Both the position numbers and the translations under genes were made by a program. 64,000 nt of DNA from Mytilus trossulus (Eukaryota). The first letter of the stretch is position 1. Every line of letters starts with the position of its first letter. Under the pieces are notes generated by a model, which searched no databases, had not been told where the DNA came from, and saw only the letters and a list, made by a program, of their open reading frames with translations. Positions 4,961 to 59,400 of this stretch are shown piece after piece. Where the stretch lies: assembly GCF_036588685.1 (NCBI RefSeq), contig NC_086385.1:50305216-50369215 (forward strand), in the 5' to 3' direction.

Positions 4961-7257
4961 TATATTTATAAATTAAAGGCAATGGTTGAAATTGAGACAC
5001 TACTGCAGATGTATATATAAAACTAAAATCTTACATTTTGGTGTTAATTACCTGTTTTTGTTTTAGATAAAATATTGTTTGATCTCGCTTAGTATTTATA
5101 AACATTTGCATTTGTCCAGAAAATACTAATCCAAACAAAGTAAGCTTGACCACTTACGGGCGATTTAATCCTACCGTATATATATAGAAGACCGTGTTCA
5201 TTCATGGTATTGATTTCACTACATAAACGGTATCTGGATATATTATTACGATAGTACTCATCCATTAAGAAAACCTTCTAAATTATTCATTTAGAAAGAA
5301 TGGTAGAGCGACCTGTACTTCAGGGACTCATTTAACTAATTACTACAAAAGTTATATATCACTTTCGCCTTTTATAAACATCATTGTTTTATTCCCATTG
5401 GACAAATAAATATTAGAAAGTAGTAAAATACTTTTGTATGTGCATACAAAAATAGCAATTTTATCTGGGTCTACATCTATCTGCTAGTTACTTACTATAG
5501 ATATTTCATTGATTTTTAAATTCAGTCTTTACGATATCACTGCCTGTGGCTGGTTTTAATGTGAGGTCGTTATTAATCCGGAACAGGGATGATATGGTAA
5601 ATGGTCATGAGTCAACATTTAAAAGATTTAACTGGAAATACTAATCTTTCAAATGAATCGCTAATTTTGTTGCTGGTTTATTTCTGCAAACGATTGTCGA
5701 TTGAGAAAAACTAGAGTATTTCTTATACTAGTACTTAATCTCTTTTGATTTTACATTTTCTTGTCCTCTAAATTTCTTCTAGGAATTTCGTCATCAAGTT
5801 TGAAATTAAGTCGCAAAGTATTAAAGTATTTTCGTTACACATGTAGCGCGGAAACATTTTTTTTTCTCAGATGGTTAACCTTTTTTATAACGTATTTAGT
5901 GTTTTGTTTTGTCTCCTTACTAGAACATTTCTATTTTTTTTTAGGAAAGCTTCATTGACATGATTAATAACAAGCATATTGTCTCTTTACAAATTACCAA
6001 ACACAAACTAAGATTTCAACTAAGGTATAATTGTAGTTACATCGTTTTTGGTCATATTCTTTTTAAGTTCTTTTTGGGTCATAAAAACTCTTCAACTCCT
6101 TTGGTTTTTATACATCTTTTGCCTCAACTGTTAAGCTTTGAATATAGAAAGCCCTACAAACGCATGCAATTGATTAAGTTGTGTTTCCTTTTTATTTTAC
6201 ATAGTAGAAGTTTTTCAAAGTTTGAAAGAAAAACATGTTAGTTTTAGCAATATAGATTTTCATAATTTTACAATATTGCTTTATTCCCTATGCATGTTCT
6301 TGGCGTCTATCTTTTTTGAAAAAAACGCAATCAAATCAATTTCCTTTCAACAGACTCTTGTTTATTTTATTATAAAACTGAAATTTTCATACAAATCAAT
6401 TCAAACGTAACATGACACGCTTTCTATCAAAACACATGATCATTCTCAAGAATCTAATTATTTTGATTGTCTTTTTCATATTTCAATTATAGATCTGAAA
6501 TTCAATTAAAAGGCCATACCAAATGAAAACGTAAATTTTGAAGGAACTTTGATTTTTACCTGTCTTTTTTTTTTTCGAACAATGAGAAATCAAATGACAA
6601 TCTTTATTTTTTTTTTTTTTTTTTTTTTAATATAATTCAATGGTTACATTGTTTTTGCAAATCTTTTGTTGGAACATAATACGGCTTGTAAAAATTAAAC
6701 TTTTAATAAGGTGATATCTAATTTGTGATCAATCGCATTTTGTATAAAAACTTTATTTTTCTTTGCGGAACTGGCGTTATTATAATGATGTTTCAATAAC
6801 AATTAAAATTGTAACAGATTATATGAATGCTATTATTTGTTATGCCCTTTCCATTGGGTACCAGTGGTGCTCAGTATTTTTTTTGGCAGATTAATCAAAA
6901 AACGAAATGGGTATCAATTCCTCATAATGTAAATTCAAGAGTTGAATTACCGCTTAAATCTGTAGATTGATACGGGAAAAGTTGACTTGCTATGACTCAT
7001 AATATTTGCACTAAATGGGTAAGCCAATTTTTAATTGGTTCTTTAGTTAAAACTAATGTATATATATTATATTCTAAAGTATTTAAAATCGAATAGACAA
7101 TAATTCAATTAAAAATGATGACAACACTATATTGTTCTACTAAGAGTCAAACACCGTTTTGTTATGAGTACAATATTAGTGCACAAATTGGCGGTAAAAT
7201 GTAAAGAAACAATTCTGCTTTATTAAGTAATCTTTAAATACAGTCGAAAATTCAACG

Positions 7258-7719
7258 TTGGCACCTCCTCGATATCAAACTATAAATCAAGTATAAAACG
7301 TTGACGATTTGTTTTTCGAAAAGTACGAGTTTAATTGTTCTGAAAAATCATAGAAGAAACTGAAATTATTTGTGTGGCCTTTAAGGCTTTGAATTAAAAG
7401 AAAATAAAACCTTGGCACCTCCTCGATATCAAACTATAAATCAAGTATAAAACGTTGACGATTTGTTTTTCGAAAAGTACGAGGTTAATTGTTCTGAAAA
7501 AATCATACAAGAAACTGAAATTATTTGTGTGGCCTTTAAGGCTTTGAATTAAAAGAAAATAAAACCTTGGCGCCCTTCGATATAAAACTATGAATCTAGT
7601 ATAAAACGTTGACGATTTGTTTTTCGAAAAGTACGAGTTTAATTGTTCTGAAAAAATCATACAAGAAACTGAAATTATTTGTGTGGCCTTTAAGCCTTGG
7701 AATTAAAATAAAATAAAAC
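7258..7719. repeat. Tandem triplication of a ~154-155 bp unit
   Basis: Near-identical units start at 7258, 7412 and 7567; each contains ...TTTGTGTGGCCTTTAA. Confidence 0.9.
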
Positions 7720-22185: not shown

Positions 22186-23088
22186 TGTTTGTGACACAAA
22201 TGTCGGTTATTGATTTGGGGATGCTCGGCGGGCGACAATCAAATGTTGTCCGTGCATTAACTCATGAACCGTTCAACCAAAGCTTTTAAAATTTTAATAT
22301 ATTGTTACTGACAACTAACTGAAGGTCAAGTACAATAATGGCGATTTTGACTTTTACCGTTCAGGAGTTATGGTTCTTGAAAGATTGAAAAATGGCATTT
22401 CCAGTCGTGTCTGTGCATTTACGCATGAACTGTTCTACAAAAGCTTCCCAAATTTTAATCTGTTGTTACTGGTGACAAAATAGAGGTCAAGTTCAATAAT
22501 GACGATTTTGACTTTTACCGTTCAGGAGTTATGGTTCTTGAAAGATTGAAAAATGGTGTTTCCAGTCGTGCCCGTGCATTTTCTCATGAACCATTCAACC
22601 AAAGCTTTTCAAATTCTAATACGTTGTTACTGATGACAAAATAGAGGTCAAGTTCAATAATGATGATTTTGACTTTTACCGTTCAGTAGTTATGGTTCTT
22701 GAAAGATCGTAAATGGCGTTTCCAGTCGTGTCCGTGCATTTACGCATGAACTGTTCTACCAAAGCTTCCCAAATTTTAATGCTGTTACTGATGACTAAAT
22801 GGAGGTCAAGTTCAATAATGACGATTTTCACTTTTACCGTTCAGGAGTTATGGTTCTTGAAAGATCGTAAAATGGTGTTTCAATTCACGTTGTTGTATTT
22901 ACTCACGAACCATTCAATCTAAGCTTTTCAAATTTTAATATGTTGATAATGATGACAAAATAGAGGTCAAATTTGATATTGACGATTTTCACTTTCACCA
23001 ATCATCAGTAATGGTTCTTGTGATATTGCCAGGACACAAATAAATGTTAATAAATCCGGTTTGCTGTCGTTGTGACAGCCTCTTGTCT
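22186..23088 (+). mobile_element. Helentron/HINE-like element carrying ~4.7 copies of a ~161-bp satellite
   Basis: Units start at ~22248, 22409, 22570, 22730 and 22891; unique left end, right end with a short stem (gctgtcgttgtgacagc) then ctcttgt; classification is inference from bivalve HINE architecture. Confidence 0.7.
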
Positions 23089-31829: not shown

Positions 31830-32760
31830 ATTTGATTTGTCATTTGATTTGTCGATCAGATTCTGGGAAAGCCGAAATCATTCCCTCCTTTATTTCTCAT
31901 GTGATTTCAATTCACGATCAGATTTTTTGAGGGCTTGGAATAATTTTCTCATTTTCTTGTCATTTGATTTGTCGATCAGATTCTTGGAAAGCCCGAAATC
32001 ATTCCCTCTATTAATTGACATGTGATTTCTATATCAGATTCTTAGAGAGCTTGAAGTTATTCGCTCCATTTTCTTGTCATTTGATATGTCGATCAGATTC
32101 TTGGAGAGCTTGATATCATTCCCTCCCTTATTTGTCATGTGATTTGTCGATCAGACACTTGGAGAGCTTGAAATCATTCCCTGTATTATTTGTCATGTGA
32201 TTTGTCGGTCAGACTCTTGGAGAGCTTGACACCATTCCCTCTATTATTTGTCATGTGATTTGTCTATCAGATTCCTGGAGGGCTTGAAATCATTCTCTCC
32301 TTTATTTGTCATGTGATTTGTCGATCTGATTCTTGGAGAGCTCGAAATCATTCCCTCTATTAATTGTCATGTGATTTGTCGATCAGATTCTTGGAGAGCT
32401 TGAAACCATTCCCGTCTATTTTTTGTCATGTGATTTGTCGATCAGATTCTCGGAGAGCTTGAAATCATTCCCTCCATTATTTGTCATGTGATTTGTCTAT
32501 CAGATTATTGAAGAGCTTAAAATCATTCCCTCTATTATTTGTCATGTGATTTGTCGATCAGATTCTTGGATGGAGAGTTTGAAATCATTCCCTCTATTAT
32601 TTGTCATGTGATTTGTCGATCAGATTCTTGGAGAGCTTGAAATCATTCCCTCCATTATTTGTCTAGTGATTTCTATATCAAATTCTTGTCATTGATTTGT
32701 AGAAAAGATTCTTGGAGGGTTTGAAATCATTCTTTTATTTATAATTTGATTTGTTGATTA
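31830..32760. repeat. 58-bp tandem satellite, ~15 copies
   Basis: Unit TTTGTCATGTGATTTGTCGATCAGATTCTTGGAGAGCTTGAAATCATTCCCTCTATTA, e.g. starts at 32131, 32189 and 32247; no unique spacers. Confidence 0.92.
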
Positions 32761-35504: not shown

Positions 35505-36672
35505 ATTAATATCTTCACTAGACTATCTTCACTTGGTCACTGTTGTCACTTTATTCAACGTTGAACACGTGAATTTACGAGCTTCACTATGAAAAAGAAG
35601 AGATGGCTTGACCGCCAATGAGACAACTGTCCACAAGAGACCAAAATGGCACATACATAAACAACTATAGTTCACCCTATGGTCTTCAACAAAAGCCCAT
35701 ACCGCATAGTCAGCTATAAAAGGCCCTGATATGACAATGTAAAACAATTTAACATAAGAAACTAACGGCCTTATCTATATGAAATAATTGGCTTTTTGAA
35801 TTAGGCCACTGTGGTTAATTATTATATGCTGAGCATTTGAGGTAAATATCTTAAATATTTAAATTAGGCTACTGTTATCACATCATTTCATGTTGAGCAT
35901 GTGAGATTAGTATCTTCTCATTTAAACTAGGACATTGTTATAACTCTATTCTATGTTGAGCATGTGATAATAATATCTTCACTTGACATTATAAGCTAGG
36001 CTACTATTGTCGCTTTATTTAATGCTGAGCATGCAGATACATATATTCACTAGACTATTTAAACTAGGCCACTGTTGTCACTACATTCTATGTTGAGCAT
36101 GTGATAATAATATCTTTACTCGACTATTTAAAATAGGTTTCTGTTGTCACTACATTCTATGTTGAGCATGTGATAATATAGGGTTATTGCATGAATATTG
36201 GGGAATATTGTCCCGAGTAGAAATTTATATTGCACGAGCTTGCGAGTGCAATATATGTTCTAGGAAAGACAATATTCCCCCATATTCATGCAATAAACCT
36301 TTTATTGTATAGCAATATAATATTTGAAAGTAAAAAGTGGTTTAAACTAGGATTTTGTCTTTGATGACGTAATGAAATTTGAAGACTTATTGCACTAGTG
36401 CAATAATAGAATTTATTGCACGCTAACTTTTGGTTACTTTCTGTAGGATATATTATATTGCTATACAATAATAATATTTTCAATAGACTATTTAAACTAG
36501 GTTTCTGTTGTCACTTTATTCTATTTGAACATGTGAGATTAATATATTCACTAGACTATTTAAACTAGGTTACTATTGTCACTTTATGCTATGATGAACA
36601 TGTGATAATACATTCTTCACTTGACTTTTTAAACTAGACTATTGTTGTCAATTCATTCTATGTTCACTAGAT
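35505..36672. repeat. Degenerate ~65-bp tandem array interrupted by a SINE-like copy (35600-35780) and a hairpin element (36177-36470)
   Basis: Unit ~CACTAGACTATTTAAACTAGGCCACTGTTGTCACT..ATTCTATGTTGAGCATGTGATAATA repeated on both sides of the insertions. Confidence 0.8.
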
Positions 36673-39932: not shown

Positions 39933-40365
39933 TATTGTGTTTACTCTTTACCTGTTTGTTCTATTATTTAATTATACTGTAACACGTGACAACCTGCTAG
40001 GTAAACGAAGACTATCAGAATCCAAATACAAATCTTAGAAAAAATAAAATCGAATTAACGTCATTTTGATTATAGCTTTTCCCTGATAGCAATGACTTGC
40101 CATTATTCAAGATCATTTACATTGCTATATATCTAATTACACTTGATTTTTTCTAATAAAAATACATTTGTAAAAGGCGAGCTTGTTCAAAGTTCAAACT
40201 AAAGTTCTATTAAAATGACAAACAGATGCATGAAACAGTCTGGATAGAGGCTAACAGACAAGAGAATAATATGGACAAAACAAAAAGATTAAATAGAAGA
40301 ATACAGAAAAGCCGGATGAGCATAAAGAATAGAGAATAAATTATCAAAATTATAAAGAATTTAAG

Positions 40366-40580
40366 AAATATGGACCATAAATATAAAGAATAGAGAAAAA
40401 TGGACCAAAGATATAAAGAATACAGAAAAATGGACCAAAAATATAAAGAATAAAGGAAAATGGACCAAAAATATAAAGAATAGAGAAAAATGGACCAAAA
40501 ATATAAAGAATACAGAAAAATTGACCAAAAATATAAAGAATACAGAAAAATTGACCAAAAATATAAAGAATAGAGAAAAA
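40366..40580. repeat. 30-bp tandem repeat, ~7 copies
   Basis: AAAAATGGACCAAAAATATAAAGAATAGAG; generates spurious ORFs 40210..40617 and 40361..40639. Confidence 0.92.
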
Positions 40581-50780: not shown

Positions 50781-51946
50781 TTGTAGTTTAACACATAAGA
50801 TTTACTTGCTTCAAAGGAAATATGTTTAATGATATAGTTATCTCCCTTGATTATACATCAATCAAAAATATCAGGGAATAATTGCAAGTTCGGACTATTA
50901 AAATAATCTCAATACAAATTTTCACCAAGGTCAATGGGGCAGTTCATTTATAAAATAGAAATTAGAAATGAGTCTCTTGCATCAAAAATGTTTCTCATTG
51001 ATTCTACTGATCTGCACCATGTGTACAATGAACCATACATAAATGTTTGAAATTATTTTCCCTAGCTCTTCCCAGGGCATAATACCAAATTGGTAGAAGC
51101 TTCTATGTTTAAACATTATTGAAGATTAAGTAATGTTCTAACATAACAGAGTTTCATAAAAAAAAATAATATCAAAAGTCAATACATGTAGTAACAATTG
51201 TATCTTTTTACTACAAATTTTAAATAAAGATGTCTAAACTAAATCTTCAAAATAAAATTGTCAAACTAATCAAAGTTGTCTAAATAATGCTTAACATTTC
51301 TATTTGCAAACTTAGATTTCAAGCCAAATTTTGACAACTTGAAATCATTTAGGTCAGTAACCTATACAGAATGAGAGTGACCTGTGCAAGATTTTATGAT
51401 GTGTCTTTAAATTTATTTTTATAAAATCAAAAATGCAATACTTGATTTCAAGAAACTAACATATGATTGAACATGTTGAACAAGAATTTGTCCCAAGTAT
51501 AGGGATGCCCCATCTACACTATCATTTTTTATGTTCAGTGGACTGTGAAAATAGGATAAAATCTCTAATTTGCATGGAAATTAGAAAAATCATATCATTA
51601 GGAACATGTTTACTGATGATGGGACTTCAACTTCATCAAAAACTACCTTGAACAAAAACTTTAACCTGATGGACAAACGGACCCACAGACCAGAAAACAT
51701 AATGCCCATACATGGGGCATACAAAACAGTACATGTATAAATCAAGTATGCAGTACTTATGAAACTAAAACTAACATATTAATCAAATAACAGTTATTCC
51801 ATACATGTAAATTTTAACCTGGTTCAGTCACACCAGTTCTTGTCCAGGAACCAGCTCTTTGTATGCATCTCATCCTTAGTCTTGTTAGTTTAAATGATGT
51901 CTCTGCATTTAGGTCCAAAGTCCAATATATAATATCTTTGGTCCAA

Positions 51947-52081
51947 TCACATGTTTGACTCTTCATCGGTTTCCATGGTAACAGTTGTTGATGGTCCAGC
52001 TTTCTTTTTACTCTTTTTCTGTTTCTTACCATCTTGTTTATTTTCATTTAATTTCTCATGGACTCCACTTACATATTTATG
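51947..52081 (-). CDS. CENPS: CENP-S exon 4 (terminal; proximal acceptor shown)
   Basis: ttgtag|CAT AAA TAT...: HKYVSGVHEKLNENKQDGKKQKKSKKKAGPSTTVTMETDEESNM*; phase 0 fits exon 3; Lys-rich tail as in vertebrate CENP-S. Confidence 0.85.
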   Translation of the reverse strand, partial: HKYVSGVHEKLNENKQDGKKQKKSKKKAGPSTTVTMETDEESNM

Positions 52082-52268
52082 CTACAATGTAATTATTTTC
52101 ATTTAATTTCTCATGGACTCCACTTACATATTTATGCTACAATGTAATTATTTTTATTTAATTTCTCATGGACTCCACTTACATATTTATGCTACAATGT
52201 AATTATTTTCATTTAATTTCTCATGGACTCCACTTACATATTTATGCTACAATGTAATTATTTTCATT
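52038..52268. repeat. 55-bp tandem repeat x4 spanning the CENP-S intron 3/exon 4 boundary
   Basis: Unit TTATTTTCATTTAATTTCTCATGGACTCCACTTACATATTTATGCTACAATGTAA; one substitution at 52155. Confidence 0.95.
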
Positions 52269-53147
52269 ATTATTTTGTAATAAATTAAGACTGTTTTTGT
52301 CTGAAATCACTCACAGAATACATTGCAGTTACACTGTATCCTGTTTTCTTATGATTTTATTGTGTACTTCAGTCATCAATACAAATTCATACAGTTTAGA
52401 TGTACATGTATAAATACTGTGGAATGACTCATCTATTATTAAACATGCAGTTTTAGTAAACCACTTTATGATAGCTACGGTCTGGTCATGTCACCGTATT
52501 TATATACATGCTTCTACATTTAATCAACAGAATGTGATGAAAGGGAAATAACTCCAAAATTAAATCAAACTACCAATGAAGATCTATTGAAAGTTGTGTT
52601 GAGCTCTTTGTTCATATGTTGCCCTCACTGGACATGCCAGACATAACATAGTTGTAAACTCATTCAATTAACATAAATGCCATTTAAGGAAGTTGCCACT
52701 GATGCCATATACTGGCCCTGCAACGTATTTTTTCAGATTCAGATTTATTCAGATTCAGATACTCAGTTTCAAAATAACAAGCTTTTCATAATGTTAATTT
52801 ACAGTATGTGATAGAGTAATAGAATAGTAAAGGAACAAGGAGAGCAAAACTATAAAAGAGGTCAATGTGCTTGTTTTTAAGATATTAGCCATTGCAATTT
52901 TGGTGGGAAAATGTTCTCTCTTGATTTTTCATTGCTTTATCAAGTTCTCAAAAACTATTTAAGATATGACTGCAATATATTTTCTGTCTATGAAGAAATA
53001 ACATCAAAAATGTGGTGCACACCTTATAACAGGTTAGGTGGGTTATTTTAGAGTGTGATCATGGTGATCCACATTTTTTATGTTATTTCAAATAGACAGA
53101 AAAAATATTACAGTCATTCCTTATAATATAATTCTAAATTCCATTTA

Positions 53148-53732
53148 TAGTCGCCGTCACGTAAAATTGGCACCATGATTTTTGTCAAAATTTTCTAAAA
53201 TATCGACCGCGTTTACTCGAGATCATGTTTTTCAATTAGCGGGATAAATATCCAATCCAAATATATACTACTGTCCTACCTTTTATTGTGTTTGCACAGT
53301 ATAATCCTGACCTTCACAAAATCAAGGATTATTTTGTATGGTGGAATCCGACATTGTTATTACCGGAAGTGTTGCCGTGGAGTCCACGTGCTCTCAATTT
53401 TCTTGTGTCTCTCGGTGCTGTGCGTCATCTCTATGTAAAAAGCGCGGGAAATCGTATCATCAATGACAATGATATTACCTGGAGAGTAACGAATGTTATG
53501 TAGTAAGGGATCCTCATAGAAACCAAGATGGCGGTTTTACAATGAAAACAATCTTGAAAAATGTGAAGGTCAGGATTATACAGTGCAAACACAATAAAAG
53601 GTAGGACAGTAGTATATATTTGGATTGAATTTTTATCCCGCTAATTGAAAAACATGATCTCGAGTAAACGCGGTCGATATTTTAGAAAATTTGGACAAAA
53701 ATCATGGTGCCAATTTTACGTGACGGCGACTA
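53148..53732. mobile_element. Young MITE with ~171-bp TIRs and TA target duplication (Tc1/mariner-type target)
   Basis: TA-TAGTCGCCGTCACGTAAAATTGGCACC...GGTGCCAATTTTACGTGACGGCGACTA-TA; arms 53148-53318 and 53562-53732 nearly perfect. Confidence 0.92.
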
Positions 53733-54423
53733 TAAAGCTGGAGTAAATCATGAAAAACATTGACAACTTCATGGTCTCATGACAAAATTATGTCTATGAG
53801 GTGATAGACAAAACACTGTCAGCCAATCAGAAGACGCATTGCATCCTAAATTAAATTATTTTAAAATACCAAAGATTTTATAAGACTTTTACAGATGGCT
53901 TATTATCATGATAATTATACATGTAAAAGATTTTCAAAAAGAAAATTGGGGTCAATGAACAAAATATTTAAAAAATTTAAAATGGATGAAACCAGAGAAT
54001 TCAGAAAATCGGACAAAAATTCCAAAACATGACAAGCGAACCTCCTTAACCAATTTGCTGTCAATTAACTACTTAATTTAGAAATGATTAATTTGTTCAA
54101 AGTAGATATGACAACAGAAATGGATATTGAAACATTCCCCTTTTCCTTTCTCAATTTTATATATATGTTTAATTTCTATGTCAATTTTTCATACGTTACC
54201 AATACTTGTTTTTACTTTTGCAAATGACATGTTTATAGCTTTCTGTTAAAATATTTTCCTATCATGGATTTAATCTATCTTTTTTATACATGTACAATCT
54301 CAAGTATTTTTGTAGAAAAAAGTTAATGCACTCTGAAATTCACTCATTAGCATGATAAGTTGGACATGTACGGTGGCTATTTCTCCAACATAATCATTAT
54401 CTTGTTCTCTTTATAAAACATAC

Positions 54424-54490
54424 CAGAGACCCAGACCTTCTTGTTAGCATTTTGATGTCGTCTGCATTTACTGTTGTCCTTTTGGCATGC
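54424..54490 (-). CDS. CENPS: CENP-S exon 3 (67 nt)
   Basis: tttttag|G CAT GCC AAA AGG...CTG|gtatgt: (K)HAKRTTVNADDIKMLTRRSGSL, the histone-fold HAKR.T...D signature. Confidence 0.95.
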
Positions 54491-56303
54491 CTAAAAAAAT
54501 AAGGAAATAGATTTCAAATATTATTAATCAAAGTGCAAGTACTTAGTTGTGTTAAAAGATGTAGGACGATGTGGTGTGAGTGCCAATGAGACAACTCTTC
54601 ATCCAAATAACAATTTATAAAAGTAAACCATTATAGGTCAATGTACGGCCTTCAACACAGAAGCCTTGGCTCACACCAAACAATAAGCTATAAAGGGCCC
54701 CAAAATAACTAGTGTAAAACCATTCAAACAGGAAAACCAACGATCTAATCTATAAAAAAAACGAGAAACAAGAAACACATATAAATTACATAAACAAATG
54801 ACAACTACTGTACATCAGATTCCTGACTAATGTTTAACAGTTATATACTTGTTAAAAAAAGGTTTTTCAAATTTAGAAGTGCCTAAGGGTTAGGCAAGAG
54901 GCATGATGCAATATTAACAATAGTTGTAACAGATTAAGCAGCAAGTACTGACATTATACATGTTTAATATGGAGTATATTTTTCAAATGAAAGTTATAGG
55001 ATATTCCATAATCCAGAGTTCGTTTTTACTATCAAAATTTTCATCATAGAGTGTTGCTGCCTACTAGCCATAGGCAGCTATTGATCCAAGGGTTCCAAAT
55101 GCTTAAGTTAAATTCATTCATTTGAAAGATTAATTAAAGTCATTATTGTTGACCATTATATATGATGCAGATGACCATGAATATTAAGTAGCCATAATAC
55201 TGTCCTCTTTACAAGATTGAATGAATTTGATTTAATCTATCAACCAATTTTTACTTATATTACCAGTTTGTACTAACATGTGCAACACAACAGCTGTCCC
55301 ATATGGAGCAGGATATACCTACATTGTACCTTTACAGAGTATCTTAGATCACTCATTTCTTTGGTTGGGTTTGTGAATATTAACCCTTTTTTTTGTAAAG
55401 TTTTAACATGAGTGCAGATATCCAAATAATGATTTGTGGCCTTCCTCTTATTTCTTATTTTCAATTTTCACTTCTTTCTTATAAATGTTGTACTTTTACA
55501 CCATTCTCCCAGGTTAGGGGGAAGTTTGAAATCCAGCTTACATTTTAAACCCAACCTTATGATGTATGTACCTGACCCAAGTCAGGAGCCTGTAATTCAG
55601 TGGCCATTGTGGGTGTTGTTTGTTCCTGTGTTACTTATATATTTGCATTTTTTTCATTTTATGTACATAACTTAGGCTGTTTAGTTTCTCATTTGAACTG
55701 TTTTACATTTGTCATTTCCATGATTTCTGGGCCTTTTATAGCTGACTATGCAGTATAAGCTTTGCTCATTGTTGAAGGCAGTATGGTGACATGTAGTTGT
55801 TAATTGATGTGTTACTTGGTCTCTTGTGAAGAGTTGTCTCATTGGCAATCATACCACATCTTCTTTTTTATAAGTACTTGCAAATCTTTTTGTTAACAAA
55901 ATTGATCTCTTTCTTTGAGAGCGATTCTAAATCATGATCACATCACCATGATCACAATTATCATTTCTCTGTTTACTTGACATCAATAAATGAGAATGTA
56001 TTGTAAAAGGAGTTTATGAAACTATCTCTTAGAATATAAGTCTATTTTCTAAACAAGAATGTGTCCATAGTACACAAATGTCCAACTCACACTATCATTT
56101 TGTATGTTCAATGGACAGAGAAACTGGTGTCAAATCTCTAATTTGGCATATAAATTAGAAAGATCACATCATAGGGAAAATGTGTCATGTGTGAACTGAG
56201 TATCAAATTTATTGGACTTCATTTATTAAACTTTACTAATAACTGTCATGAAATGCCTACAAATAAATCATTTGTAAATGGGGCATAAAAAAGAAAATCA
56301 TAC

Positions 56304-56461
56304 TTGGCAAACATCTCCATATCTTCTGCAAACTTTTGACATTGTCTCCATGCTGTTTCTGATATTGAGGCTACCAGCTGTTTTGTGCAGACAACATCTA
56401 GCTCGGAGGACTGCTGTTGGCATATCTTCATTGTAGTGTAATGGAGTGCTGCTTTTAATCT
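56304..56461 (-). CDS. CENPS: CENP-S exon 2 (158 nt)
   Basis: tttttag|AGA...GCC AA|gtatga: RLKAALHYTTMKICQQQSSELDVVCTKQLVASISETAWRQCQKFAEDMEMFA; matches the CENP-S/MHF1 RLKAA.HY and D.EMFA motifs. Confidence 0.95.
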
Positions 56462-59400
56462 CTAAAAACATGAAAAATAAAAGGTAAATACATTTGAGAT
56501 AATTTTTTTATCAGTTTCAAGTTACTATTTTAATTACTTGATCGTCATCTAATAGTTATAATAAAATACTATGTAAATAATATTTTCGGATTTGGTACAG
56601 TACAGCCTGTGACATCCTCTTAGTAATGTCCACCCTCTTGCATGGTCAACATCCAATGGTGGACATTAATTGGGGTATTCAATTTTGAGATGTTGGCCAT
56701 TTATTGGGGGTCATAAATCATAGGTTGATTTTTTTTATCTAATTATGTTACCTGTTAAAATCAACCTGAAGTTTTCAGCTGGTATGTTTTATTAAAATTT
56801 ACCTGTACAGGTAATTTGGGTTTCTTTTAAAATTGACATTCCACCTTTTTTGGAAAATGTAGAATAAAAAATTGTTTTACTAAGTCTGTTAAATTTTTAT
56901 AATTTTTTGTCTTTAATTTTATTTAATATTTTTTTTTTTTTTAATTGTTATTTTTATTTCATCCTGTTTTGTTTCTTATTCTTTAATAATTTCTATTTAT
57001 AGTAAGAATCTTGAGTAAAAATGGCAAAAAGTCAAAGATAAAGTTATTGACTAGAATTTGAAATAAACAGACTTTCAATAATTGTTTTTTAAGTAAAAGG
57101 TTTATATAAATGTACATGTTGTACATTGTATTCAATCGTTTCTTAACATTATTAAATGAGTTATTACTATTAATAAAAACTAATAATCATGCAAGTATAT
57201 TTTAAATAAAAAAATAAGATGATCAATATCTATCCTTTTACAATAAATTTTTATAACATCTAATGTCCTTATATATATATCTGAATAAAGTGAATCTTAT
57301 GAAAAGAAATTATTTAAAGAAATTGTCTTGAAACTTATTAAATACATTATCGTCAGTTTGGTGAATTTCTTTCAAAATTTGTCTCCAGAAAAAATGAAGT
57401 GCACTTCTAAAGATGGTGACACTTTTATGGTCTATTATTTAAATCATTTTTTTCCAGTGTATTATATAGTCAATAGTGCTGGACTGACATGATACATATT
57501 CTTGGTATACATTTACTATGATTTACAAAGAATATGTCAATTAACCTAGGCCTTTCAGATAAAGTTAATAATTGCAGGGACTTGAATGAATTAAGACTCT
57601 TAAAGTCATGAAAGTCCTTAATAAAAACTGAATTTAAATCAAAATCTAAAAATAAAAATTTATGATAAAAACTGTAAACTTGATTGTGTCAATAGGTAGA
57701 GAATTTTGGTCATAATTTAGTAATAGAAAATAAATTCCTAGAAGGATAGAGTGTGTAAAATTATTTACCTTCTCATTATAATGTCTCTTACCCAAGAACA
57801 AAAAGTAAAAGAAATGCTTAACCTCTAAAACATGGATCATGTTTAAAATATCATATGACAATAAAAATATTATCAAATTTTGCTGTAATGAATATTTCAA
57901 ATACTTATAAATATTCTATTCAATAAAGAAATAATGAATTGCCTAAATTTTATTTAGCTTAAGTCCTAATGACAATCTTAATCATTTGTTAAACCATGTT
58001 GAATGCAGATCAGTTTATCTACAATAATAAAACATTTTGATTTTAGAAAAATAATTTGAGAAACACTTTGTCTATAAAAAAAAAAAAAAAGCATGCATTG
58101 TAAATGATATTCATTTATTCTTTACTTACATGACTACCAAAAAATAGAATTATTATAAAAAAGACTTAAAACTGATTAAAAATTATTTAAAGGGTATAAT
58201 AATAAATATCAAAACTAATAGTCATGAGACATTTATTTTTTAATTAAGCTGTGTGTTCAACTAGTTTTATTATTTCATTTTATATTCATGATATTTGAAA
58301 ATTCTTCGTCATTATCACAGTTATTAAATTTGACAAACACATACATGTATATTTTACCTGAGACATGTGACCTGTAAGTTATATAATTTTAACACTTGAA
58401 TGCATTCAAGATTTCCCTTTATCCTTGACTAGTTTTTGATTAATACCTTGTGTATTAGAAAAGCAACAGAGGTATGATGATGGACATATAGGGCCACCAT
58501 GGTCAACATAATTTTTATGGCCACCATTAATAAGATAAAGTCACAGGTAGTACTGTAAGATTACAAGGAGGCTACATGAGTACATTGTACATGTATTATC
58601 AACAGAAGACCTAAGGACTGTACATGTATGTGTTTATCTTGACTAATGAGAAAACTCCTACGTTATATTTTAGATTAGCATTAATACATTAATGTGTTTC
58701 TTTGTTTTTTCTAATTATGTACATGTACTATTAACATGAATAATCCATTGTTCTATGTGATTTAAGAAATTAGAATCATTGACATTCCATTATTCCATTT
58801 AGGGAAGCGTGCATGTACAATGTACACAATGTAGCAAAATGAGGCCCCATAAAGAAGTGTCCAAGTAATTAGATAATTACATTGTTTTGCAAATACATGA
58901 ATATAATCATATTCTATACATCATTGTTCATTCATGTCATTAATTATTCATTAATCATGTTACTTATTTGTTTGACCAAGATGATGAAGATAATAAAATA
59001 ATAAAAAATACCGTCCTAGTAGAACTTATCACAAACATGACAAATGATCAGGAAATATCTGGTAAGGATTTCAAAATCAAATGAACAGTATAAAAAGGCC
59101 AAGGTTTCAAACAATCAAAAACCCCATGTGAATTATAAAGGCTTTCTGAACAAATAAGTGGAATTGTATCAGACCTATATGCATGAAGACTAGTATTTGT
59201 AAACTGTCTATTCTCGGACTAAGCCCTGTATAATGTTACCAAATCCTGATTTTGAGGCAATTCAAGATACTCTAATTGCATCTATTATAAATATAAGTTG
59301 TATTTTGTATTTGAAAAAAACACATATGTATGTACATGTATGGCTTGCATGAACCTGGCAGGGGCGAATGTGTTAACAGTAATGATTGCGATTTTGTCCA

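Follow-up and report, generated by a model that had tools for sequence, protein, structure and literature searches.

Several described systems carry a splice site within a duplicated segment. In the potato RdRp gene, the duplicated segment runs from an intron's 3' end into the 5' part of the following exon, and its exonic portion holds a cryptic GTAAG donor. The potato gene has two copies with an inherited branch site and pyrimidine tract, two species share the duplication, and 106 RNA reads cross the new junction (Ma, Lan and Niu 2016; PMC4974935, accessible text). According to the same text, proven and source-identified intron gains are few. Human CBS c.844_845ins68 is a polymorphic duplication of a 3' splice site and the flanking exon. 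It is 68 bp long (52 intronic and 16 exonic bases), a few bases distinguish its two copies, and splicing goes to the distal site (accessible parts of PMC2630376 and PMC7490669). The human F7 IVS7 37-bp minisatellite is a variable-number repeat with an identical splice site in each unit; its repeated site is a donor, not an acceptor, and the extra sites are silent (PMC1557585, accessible text).

[quoted passage not shown] Here, single-copy segments between short arms duplicate and may expand, and longer arms recur more; expansion to tandem repeats follows the model of Haber and Louis, as cited in the accessible text of PMC13167724. The string 'splic' is absent from the main text of that paper.

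The locus described here is a 55-bp array at the start of the last exon of CENP-S (MHF1), a gene of chromosome segregation and DNA repair, in Mytilus. The kind of variant is already known from CBS 844ins68, potato RdRp and F7 IVS7. Compared with potato, the mussel array has two to four copies, is polymorphic, includes 22 intronic bases, lies at a terminal exon and has a stop in each unit, and it is known here from DNA. Compared with CBS, it has four near-identical copies with latent donors and a predicted acceptor choice. As in MTD, short direct repeats flank a single-copy segment, copies are head-to-tail and copy number varies within a species group, and the duplication may have recurred; unlike in MTD, one mussel arm is intronic and the other exonic, so the unit carries an acceptor and a latent donor. 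The novelty lies in the living series of copy numbers: a new intron would be long enough to be workable only with three or more copies. The named cases were seen after the event, while here the allele states segregate together in an easily collected animal. With its alleles on two haplotype backgrounds, the series opens a direct test of the choice among identical acceptors, of intron birth and of the rescue of a broken splice site through repeat expansion.

The CENP-S gene and its array

The window, which is the whole stretch of 64,000 nucleotides that was analyzed, contains the single-copy CENP-S gene of a Mytilus mussel on its minus strand (Table 1). The original prediction had named the gene as CENP-S, and this is borne out by Pfam and by homologues. 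Exons 2 and 3 both pass the cutoff (28 bits) of PF15630, the CENP-S histone-fold domain. The homologue search with exon 2 gave three matches among six candidates, and the best cluster consists of CENP-S records named Mytilus edulis, galloprovincialis, trossulus and californianus. One relative, P0003, matches human CENP-S chains with an E-value of 5.9e-31. The stop codon is at 51949–51947. A Pfam match of the last exon to Mrx7 (E 0.051) is below the cutoff and was dismissed. In G000, the exon 2 match (one), the full match of the 601-base region (one) and the unit matches (four) are all at the CENP-S locus, and confusion with a paralogue or a haplotig is rejected on this basis. The literature search found no paper naming both Mytilus and CENP-S.

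Table 1. Features of the CENP-S gene and of its tandem array (window positions)
Feature	Position	Strand	Evidence or remark
CENP-S exon 1, coding part, 17 codons	61057..61107	-	joined product identical to record P0008
CENP-S exon 2	56304..56461	-	PF15630 E 5.2e-17, 62.4 bits; RNA contigs X6, X20, X21
CENP-S exon 3, 67 nt, phase-0 donor at 54423	54424..54490	-	PF15630 28.3 bits; X6, X20 contigs
Last exon, A4 to stop; encodes final helix and basic tail	51947..52081	-	RNA contigs
Array with terminal 11-bp microhomology	52038..52268	-	straddles intron 3/exon 4 boundary; junction contigs X1, X3
Intronic copy of 11-bp microhomology	52258..52268	-	X2 single-unit alleles pass through into native intron
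Exonic copy of 11-bp microhomology	52038..52048	-	codons N104-K107 region
Single substitution in one unit's microhomology	52155..52155	.	contig depth fit
Candidate 9-nt micro-exon (HKY) opened by acceptor A1, with D1 (latent donor) at 52237	52238..52246	-	predicted use
Candidate new 156-nt intron, D1 to A4	52082..52237	-	frame computed; absent from RNA contigs
Intron 3 branch-point candidate with the best score: TTAAT, its A at -39 from 52246	52285..52288	-	outside unit; function inferred

Tandem Repeats Finder (TRF) reports the array with a period of 55, 4.2 copies and 98% matches. Each unit, read on the minus strand, has 22 intronic and 33 exonic bases, and the intronic part is the 11-bp microhomology followed by 11 bases ending in TAG. 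The acceptors A1 to A4 give exon starts at 52246, 52191, 52136 and 52081, and the donors D1 to D4 (TAT/GTAAGT) are at 52237, 52182, 52127 and 52072. The TRF result and these motif positions confirm the quadruplicated acceptor with one GTAAGT donor per unit, as first proposed. The proposal that the 11-bp microhomology bounds the array in both intron and exon also holds, with both copies located. The 11-bp motif starts at 52268, 52213, 52103 and 52048, and with one substitution at 52158; the fifth copy terminates the array within the exon. Three of the units share one sequence, from which the fourth departs at 52155 alone. The units are head-to-tail with one microhomology arm per junction and no inserted bases. 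By a rough, after-the-fact estimate (40 × 60 position grid, local composition), about 0.002 such 11-mer pairs are expected by chance.

RNA folding of 52030–52300 gave no clear structure that hides the acceptors (z -1.74; 10 of 200 shuffles as good). The metagenome scan for the exon start gave 0 matches, and the literature search for a VNTR combined with an acceptor gave nothing that looked related. Just upstream of the array, at 52343–52403, lies a dispersed repeat of ~60 bp, for which the scored G000 candidates include 40 further matches.

Copy number and origin of the array

Seven of 24 sequencing runs were compared, all as contigs, and four of them are DNA runs. The joint table of the contig comparison over 51700–56600 is dominated by intronic repeats and is uninformative on the array. 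Five of 20 contig rows were dropped (X2 record 12 and X8 records 17–20), as short AT-rich chance matches with loose ends.

In the DNA run X1, one contig set equals the window without difference over pieces of 179–330 bases and a second set differs, each at a depth of ~20. This indicates that X1 is heterozygous and probably the assembled animal; it therefore checks the assembly but is not a second individual. The X1 contig 52054–52122 crosses the unit junction at a depth of 56.9, against ~20 per haplotype, and 19 of its 39 words are impossible in any single-unit allele. For a 46-base contig made of words that the units share, the depth is 89.1. The second haplotype departs from the unit at 52249, where A>G makes the acceptor CAG, and continues into the intron. 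A word-count model with four assembled units and one CAG unit predicts depths of 57.3 and 90.1, within ~1% of those seen. The other seven of the eight scored models (18 were computed) are off by at least 10% on at least one contig, with three units off by 13% and 10%; contig depth is no copy number, so close a match owes something to chance, and four rather than three units are the probable count. The contig depths of X1 thus fit four units on one haplotype and one CAG-acceptor unit on the other. The window haplotype has no listed X1 contig at 52250–52339 or across the 52155 junction. The missing cover of 52250–52339, like that of the native intron in X3, was not counted as evidence, and graph cleaning as its source is a guess.

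The second run with the junction is X3, from organism B. Its 85-base contig 52038–52122 makes one full turn of the 55-base cycle (85 = 55 + 30) and continues for 19 bases beyond the microhomology, a stretch in which 14 of 19 positions distinguish the junction from the native intron. The unit letters of X3 (52084 G, 52091 T) are those of the single-unit haplotype of X1, and its flank differs from the window at three of 178 bases. X3 has a depth of 11 in the array and of 4.79 in the flank, which is consistent with roughly two to four units, and at least two units are present. X2, from the same organism and study, has two haplotypes that pass 52103 into the native intron; both are single-unit and CAG. 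X8, from organism C, is also CAG, and is single-unit as judged by eye from a loose end, with one mismatch in the intronic microhomology.

Mis-assembly of a single-unit locus had been named as what would overturn the prediction, and it is largely refuted, as the read-derived contigs of X1 and X3 contain the unit junction. An artefact of the assembly or library, with one unit as the true locus, could draw on the probable identity of X1 with the assembly's own sample, on the low depth of X3 (4.8 to 11) and on the lack of the 52155 variant among the listed contigs. The junction words of X1 are, however, at well over the depth of one haplotype, and X3, which comes from another study, has the same junction with different unit letters. 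Such an artefact is therefore very improbable. As for the argument first drawn from 52155 against an artefact, the variant letter is in no listed contig, and it is the depth fit that supports the substitution.

X3 carries the junction too, with CAG-type unit letters and other flanking sequence, and X2 and X8 are single-unit; the array is therefore a segregating minisatellite. The copy numbers are one (X2, X8 and the second haplotype of X1), four (the window and X1) and at least two (X3). The junction is present in two of the four DNA runs examined (X1 and X3), or in one of three when X1 is excluded. The suggestion of a copy-number-variable allele is upheld by these runs. The ancestral state is without duplication, given the single-unit alleles of X1, X2 and X8 and the extra HKY in none of the nine aligned proteins.

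There are two unit types, with a TAG and with a CAG acceptor. The TAG acceptor (52249) is seen only on the window haplotype, while CAG is seen in the other haplotype of X1 and in X2, X3 and X8. Alleles with a single copy already have the 11-bp microhomologies on either side of the unit, and duplication between these likely gave rise to the array, possibly twice. The simplest reading of two unit types with unlike flanks is that this microhomology was the site of two origins; one old origin with conversion or homogenization may instead explain them. Slippage between the two 11-base direct repeats would duplicate the 55-base piece at the start of the last CENP-S exon. Microhomology-mediated tandem duplication would come first, and expansion via slippage or unequal exchange may have followed. 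The DNA-level account taken by itself can be held with high confidence. The minisatellite works like the MTD-born type and shows its microhomology-flanked single-copy ancestor, head-to-tail copies and copy-number variation. Splicing of the array allele being a prediction, the locus is classed as a minisatellite rather than as an intron gain.

Splice-site choice

Direct use of A1, A2, A3 and A4 gives products of 111, 111, 111 and 136 aa, respectively. The A2 product has Lys where the other products have Glu, which corrects the first reading. The claim that only 52081 gives the full tail is right for direct acceptor use, but micro-exon paths also keep the tail. Of 21 possible splice paths, eight keep the basic tail and 13 lose it. 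The tail-losing paths stop inside a unit and give 111–117 aa. If introns of at least 50 nt only are allowed, eight paths are left and three keep the tail: direct A4, A1-D1-A4 (156 nt) and A2-D2-A4 (101 nt).

The acceptors differ in upstream context, as judged by donor and branch scores that are simple consensus counts and by splice rules that come from mammals. A1 alone has two full yTnAy sites (-39 and -35), and its AG-free zone is 44 nt, against 28 nt at A2–A4. A2–A4 have no yTnAy; they have only TTAAA at -22, which scores like the native -24 and -21 sites. The change 52288 A>G, in the second haplotype of X1 and in X2, gives CTAAT and is conservative for the -39 site. The array acceptor is 44% pyrimidine, the same as the native one, against 83–89% for the gene's other two acceptors. 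The purine content at +45 to +90 is 80% after A4 and 61% otherwise. A first-AG rule and a branch range of 18–37 are described for cattle and human (PMC8531310, accessible text).

It is proposed tentatively, at somewhat less than an even chance, that the array draws splicing mostly to an upstream copy, which would remove the basic DNA-binding tail. A1 would win because it alone keeps the native branch-point and U-rich context, with the longer AG-free zone and the first-AG rule on its side. In the 13 tail-losing paths, the predicted protein would keep the histone fold and the last helix (to residue 106). The stop is more than 50 nt before the last junction in only one of the 21 paths, and by the 50-nt rule of nonsense-mediated decay the truncated transcripts would mostly escape. 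A minority full-length product would come from A4 or from the micro-exon path, and the array allele would be a mild, partly leaky hypomorph in heterozygotes. Several facts weigh against truncation. A2–A4 retain a passable branch site, the best A1 site (-39) is just outside the usual range of 18–37, and the purine-rich native exon is only behind A4. The distal acceptor is strongly favoured in CBS 844ins68, in the accessible text. The presence of the array on two divergent haplotypes and in two of four DNA runs fits a harmless allele.

In another expectation, exon definition favours A4, the extra units leave with intron 3 and a normal 136-aa CENP-S is made, as in CBS 844ins68. Besides this precedent, F7 IVS7 uses the site with the authentic exon context (PMC1557585, accessible text). 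In the mussel, each later unit has a usable branch site at -22, the purine-rich stretch comes only after A4, and the weak acceptor may lean on exonic enhancers. Carriers are not rare. Nevertheless, A1 equals A4 over the last 22 intronic and the first 44 exonic bases, has the better upstream context and is transcribed first. The CBS copies, moreover, differ by a few bases and include 52 intronic bases, whereas the mussel copies are identical and include 22. A silent outcome of this kind is rather unlikely. Should A4 simply win, the array would be a silent minisatellite of an ordinary sort, and a source of confusion in read mapping and gene annotation. Reed and Maniatis reportedly performed splicing experiments with duplicated sites, which are not used as evidence here.

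The RNA assemblies bear on the normal allele. In X6 and X20 (organism A; taken as RNA by guess), exactly 67 letters, corresponding to exon 3, lie between exon 2 and 52081. In X21 (organism C, RNA), the last-exon piece begins at 52081. The contigs of these three runs contain no micro-exon, no doubled 9-mer and no unit junction, and none is the window haplotype. The RNA depth over 52028–52191 is fully accounted for by these contigs, with nothing on the junction. Each of the three departs from the window's sequence in its last exon or 3' UTR. The RNA contigs therefore do not discriminate for the array allele; contigs also drop rare forms, and what this RNA shows, for those animals only, is the normal form, with the latent donor silent. 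The 136-aa form in all three assemblies and in P0008 agrees with use of A4 but does not discriminate either. The A4 product equals P0008 and differs from P0006 by one residue; its identity with P0008 was excluded as support for A4, as that record may derive from the same assembly and from RNA of a single-unit animal.

A third outcome is the birth of an intron. D1 would pair with A4, the 156-nt intron would be removed, and the 9-nt exon would add HKY. The original prediction that this restores the frame with three more residues is sound as computed, giving 139 aa with the tail, yet it concerns one of 21 paths. The potato RdRp gain has the same geometry. The unit donor matches the U1 consensus at seven of nine positions, like the gene's true donors (7, 6 and 7), and the frame is kept (156 = 0 mod 3). 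The GT of the donor sits in a Val codon, where three of the nine aligned proteins have Val and six, including that of californianus, have Ile; for this reason the latent donor is probably young. The longest new intron grows from 46 to 101 and 156 nt with two, three and four copies, and it would become spliceable. In F7, the donor chosen among identical ones is reported to be the most upstream (PMC1557585, accessible text). The obstacles are that D1 and A4 must beat D2, D3, A2 and A3, that the unit has no polypyrimidine tract, and that among the eight paths with introns of at least 50 nt only two are tail-keeping micro-exon paths. The doubled 9-mer is in no RNA contig of X6, X20 and X21, whose haplotypes differ from the window, and the allele is not fixed. 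Intron birth as the main outcome is unlikely, and mixtures of truncation, silent use of A4 and intron birth are likely.

It can be speculated that repeated intron birth is under way at a single spot in wild mussels, although this is more doubtful than intron birth as such. The young Ile-to-Val change would have made the latent donor, and the 11-bp microhomology would keep duplicating the surrounding acceptor. Two copies would give a tail-less CENP-S, since a 46-nt intron would be too short, and three or four copies would rescue the protein via a spliceable intron and the 9-nt exon. If this is true, alleles of one, two, three and four units are a natural series of intron gain.

In one haplotype of X2, 52070 T>C alters the third base of the latent donor, with GT and Val kept. 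A second latent donor is at 52029 (6 of 9 consensus positions), in the last exon and outside the unit; it is silent in the X6, X20 and X21 RNA assemblies.

The basic tail and neighbouring repeats

The part at stake in the favoured but tentative truncation is the basic C-terminal tail. The CENP-S basic tail binds DNA (PMC9067375); the accessible text of PMC6952179 contains nothing on it. The A4 product has eight Lys or Arg beyond residue 106, and these eight basic residues are lost in the truncated form. The basic cluster is present, by eye, in nine of nine aligned CENP-S proteins. The residue numbering of mussel and human CENP-S coincides, and the solved chains 4ne3_A, 4dra_A, 3b0b_B and 4e44_A stop at the equivalents of residues 106, 107, 109 and 110. 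By analogy with these chains, the truncated CENP-S resembles the core constructs of crystallographers, and its folding with CENP-X should be preserved. An allele that truncates would be a CENP-S made tail-less by nature.

In the last exon, G at 51994 encodes Pro122, while Thr is found in the second haplotype of X1, in X2, X3, X6, X8 and X20 and in P0006 and P0007; X21 is without T.

Intron 3 contains inverted-repeat arms of 192 bp at 53144–53736, which are 94% complementary and 209 nt apart. The very high contig depth indicates that this is probably a MITE-like or foldback element. Beside it, 52960–53123 has nested short inverted repeats with arms of 32 and 26 nt, which are also high-copy. A high-copy element is found twice in intron 2, in opposite orientations, at 54565–54706 and 55723–55863. 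More diverged, older minisatellites are at 7246–7719, 22247–23020, 31835–32688, 35856–36662 and 40322–40580, with periods of 154, 161, 58, 69 and 30 and with 76–95% matches.
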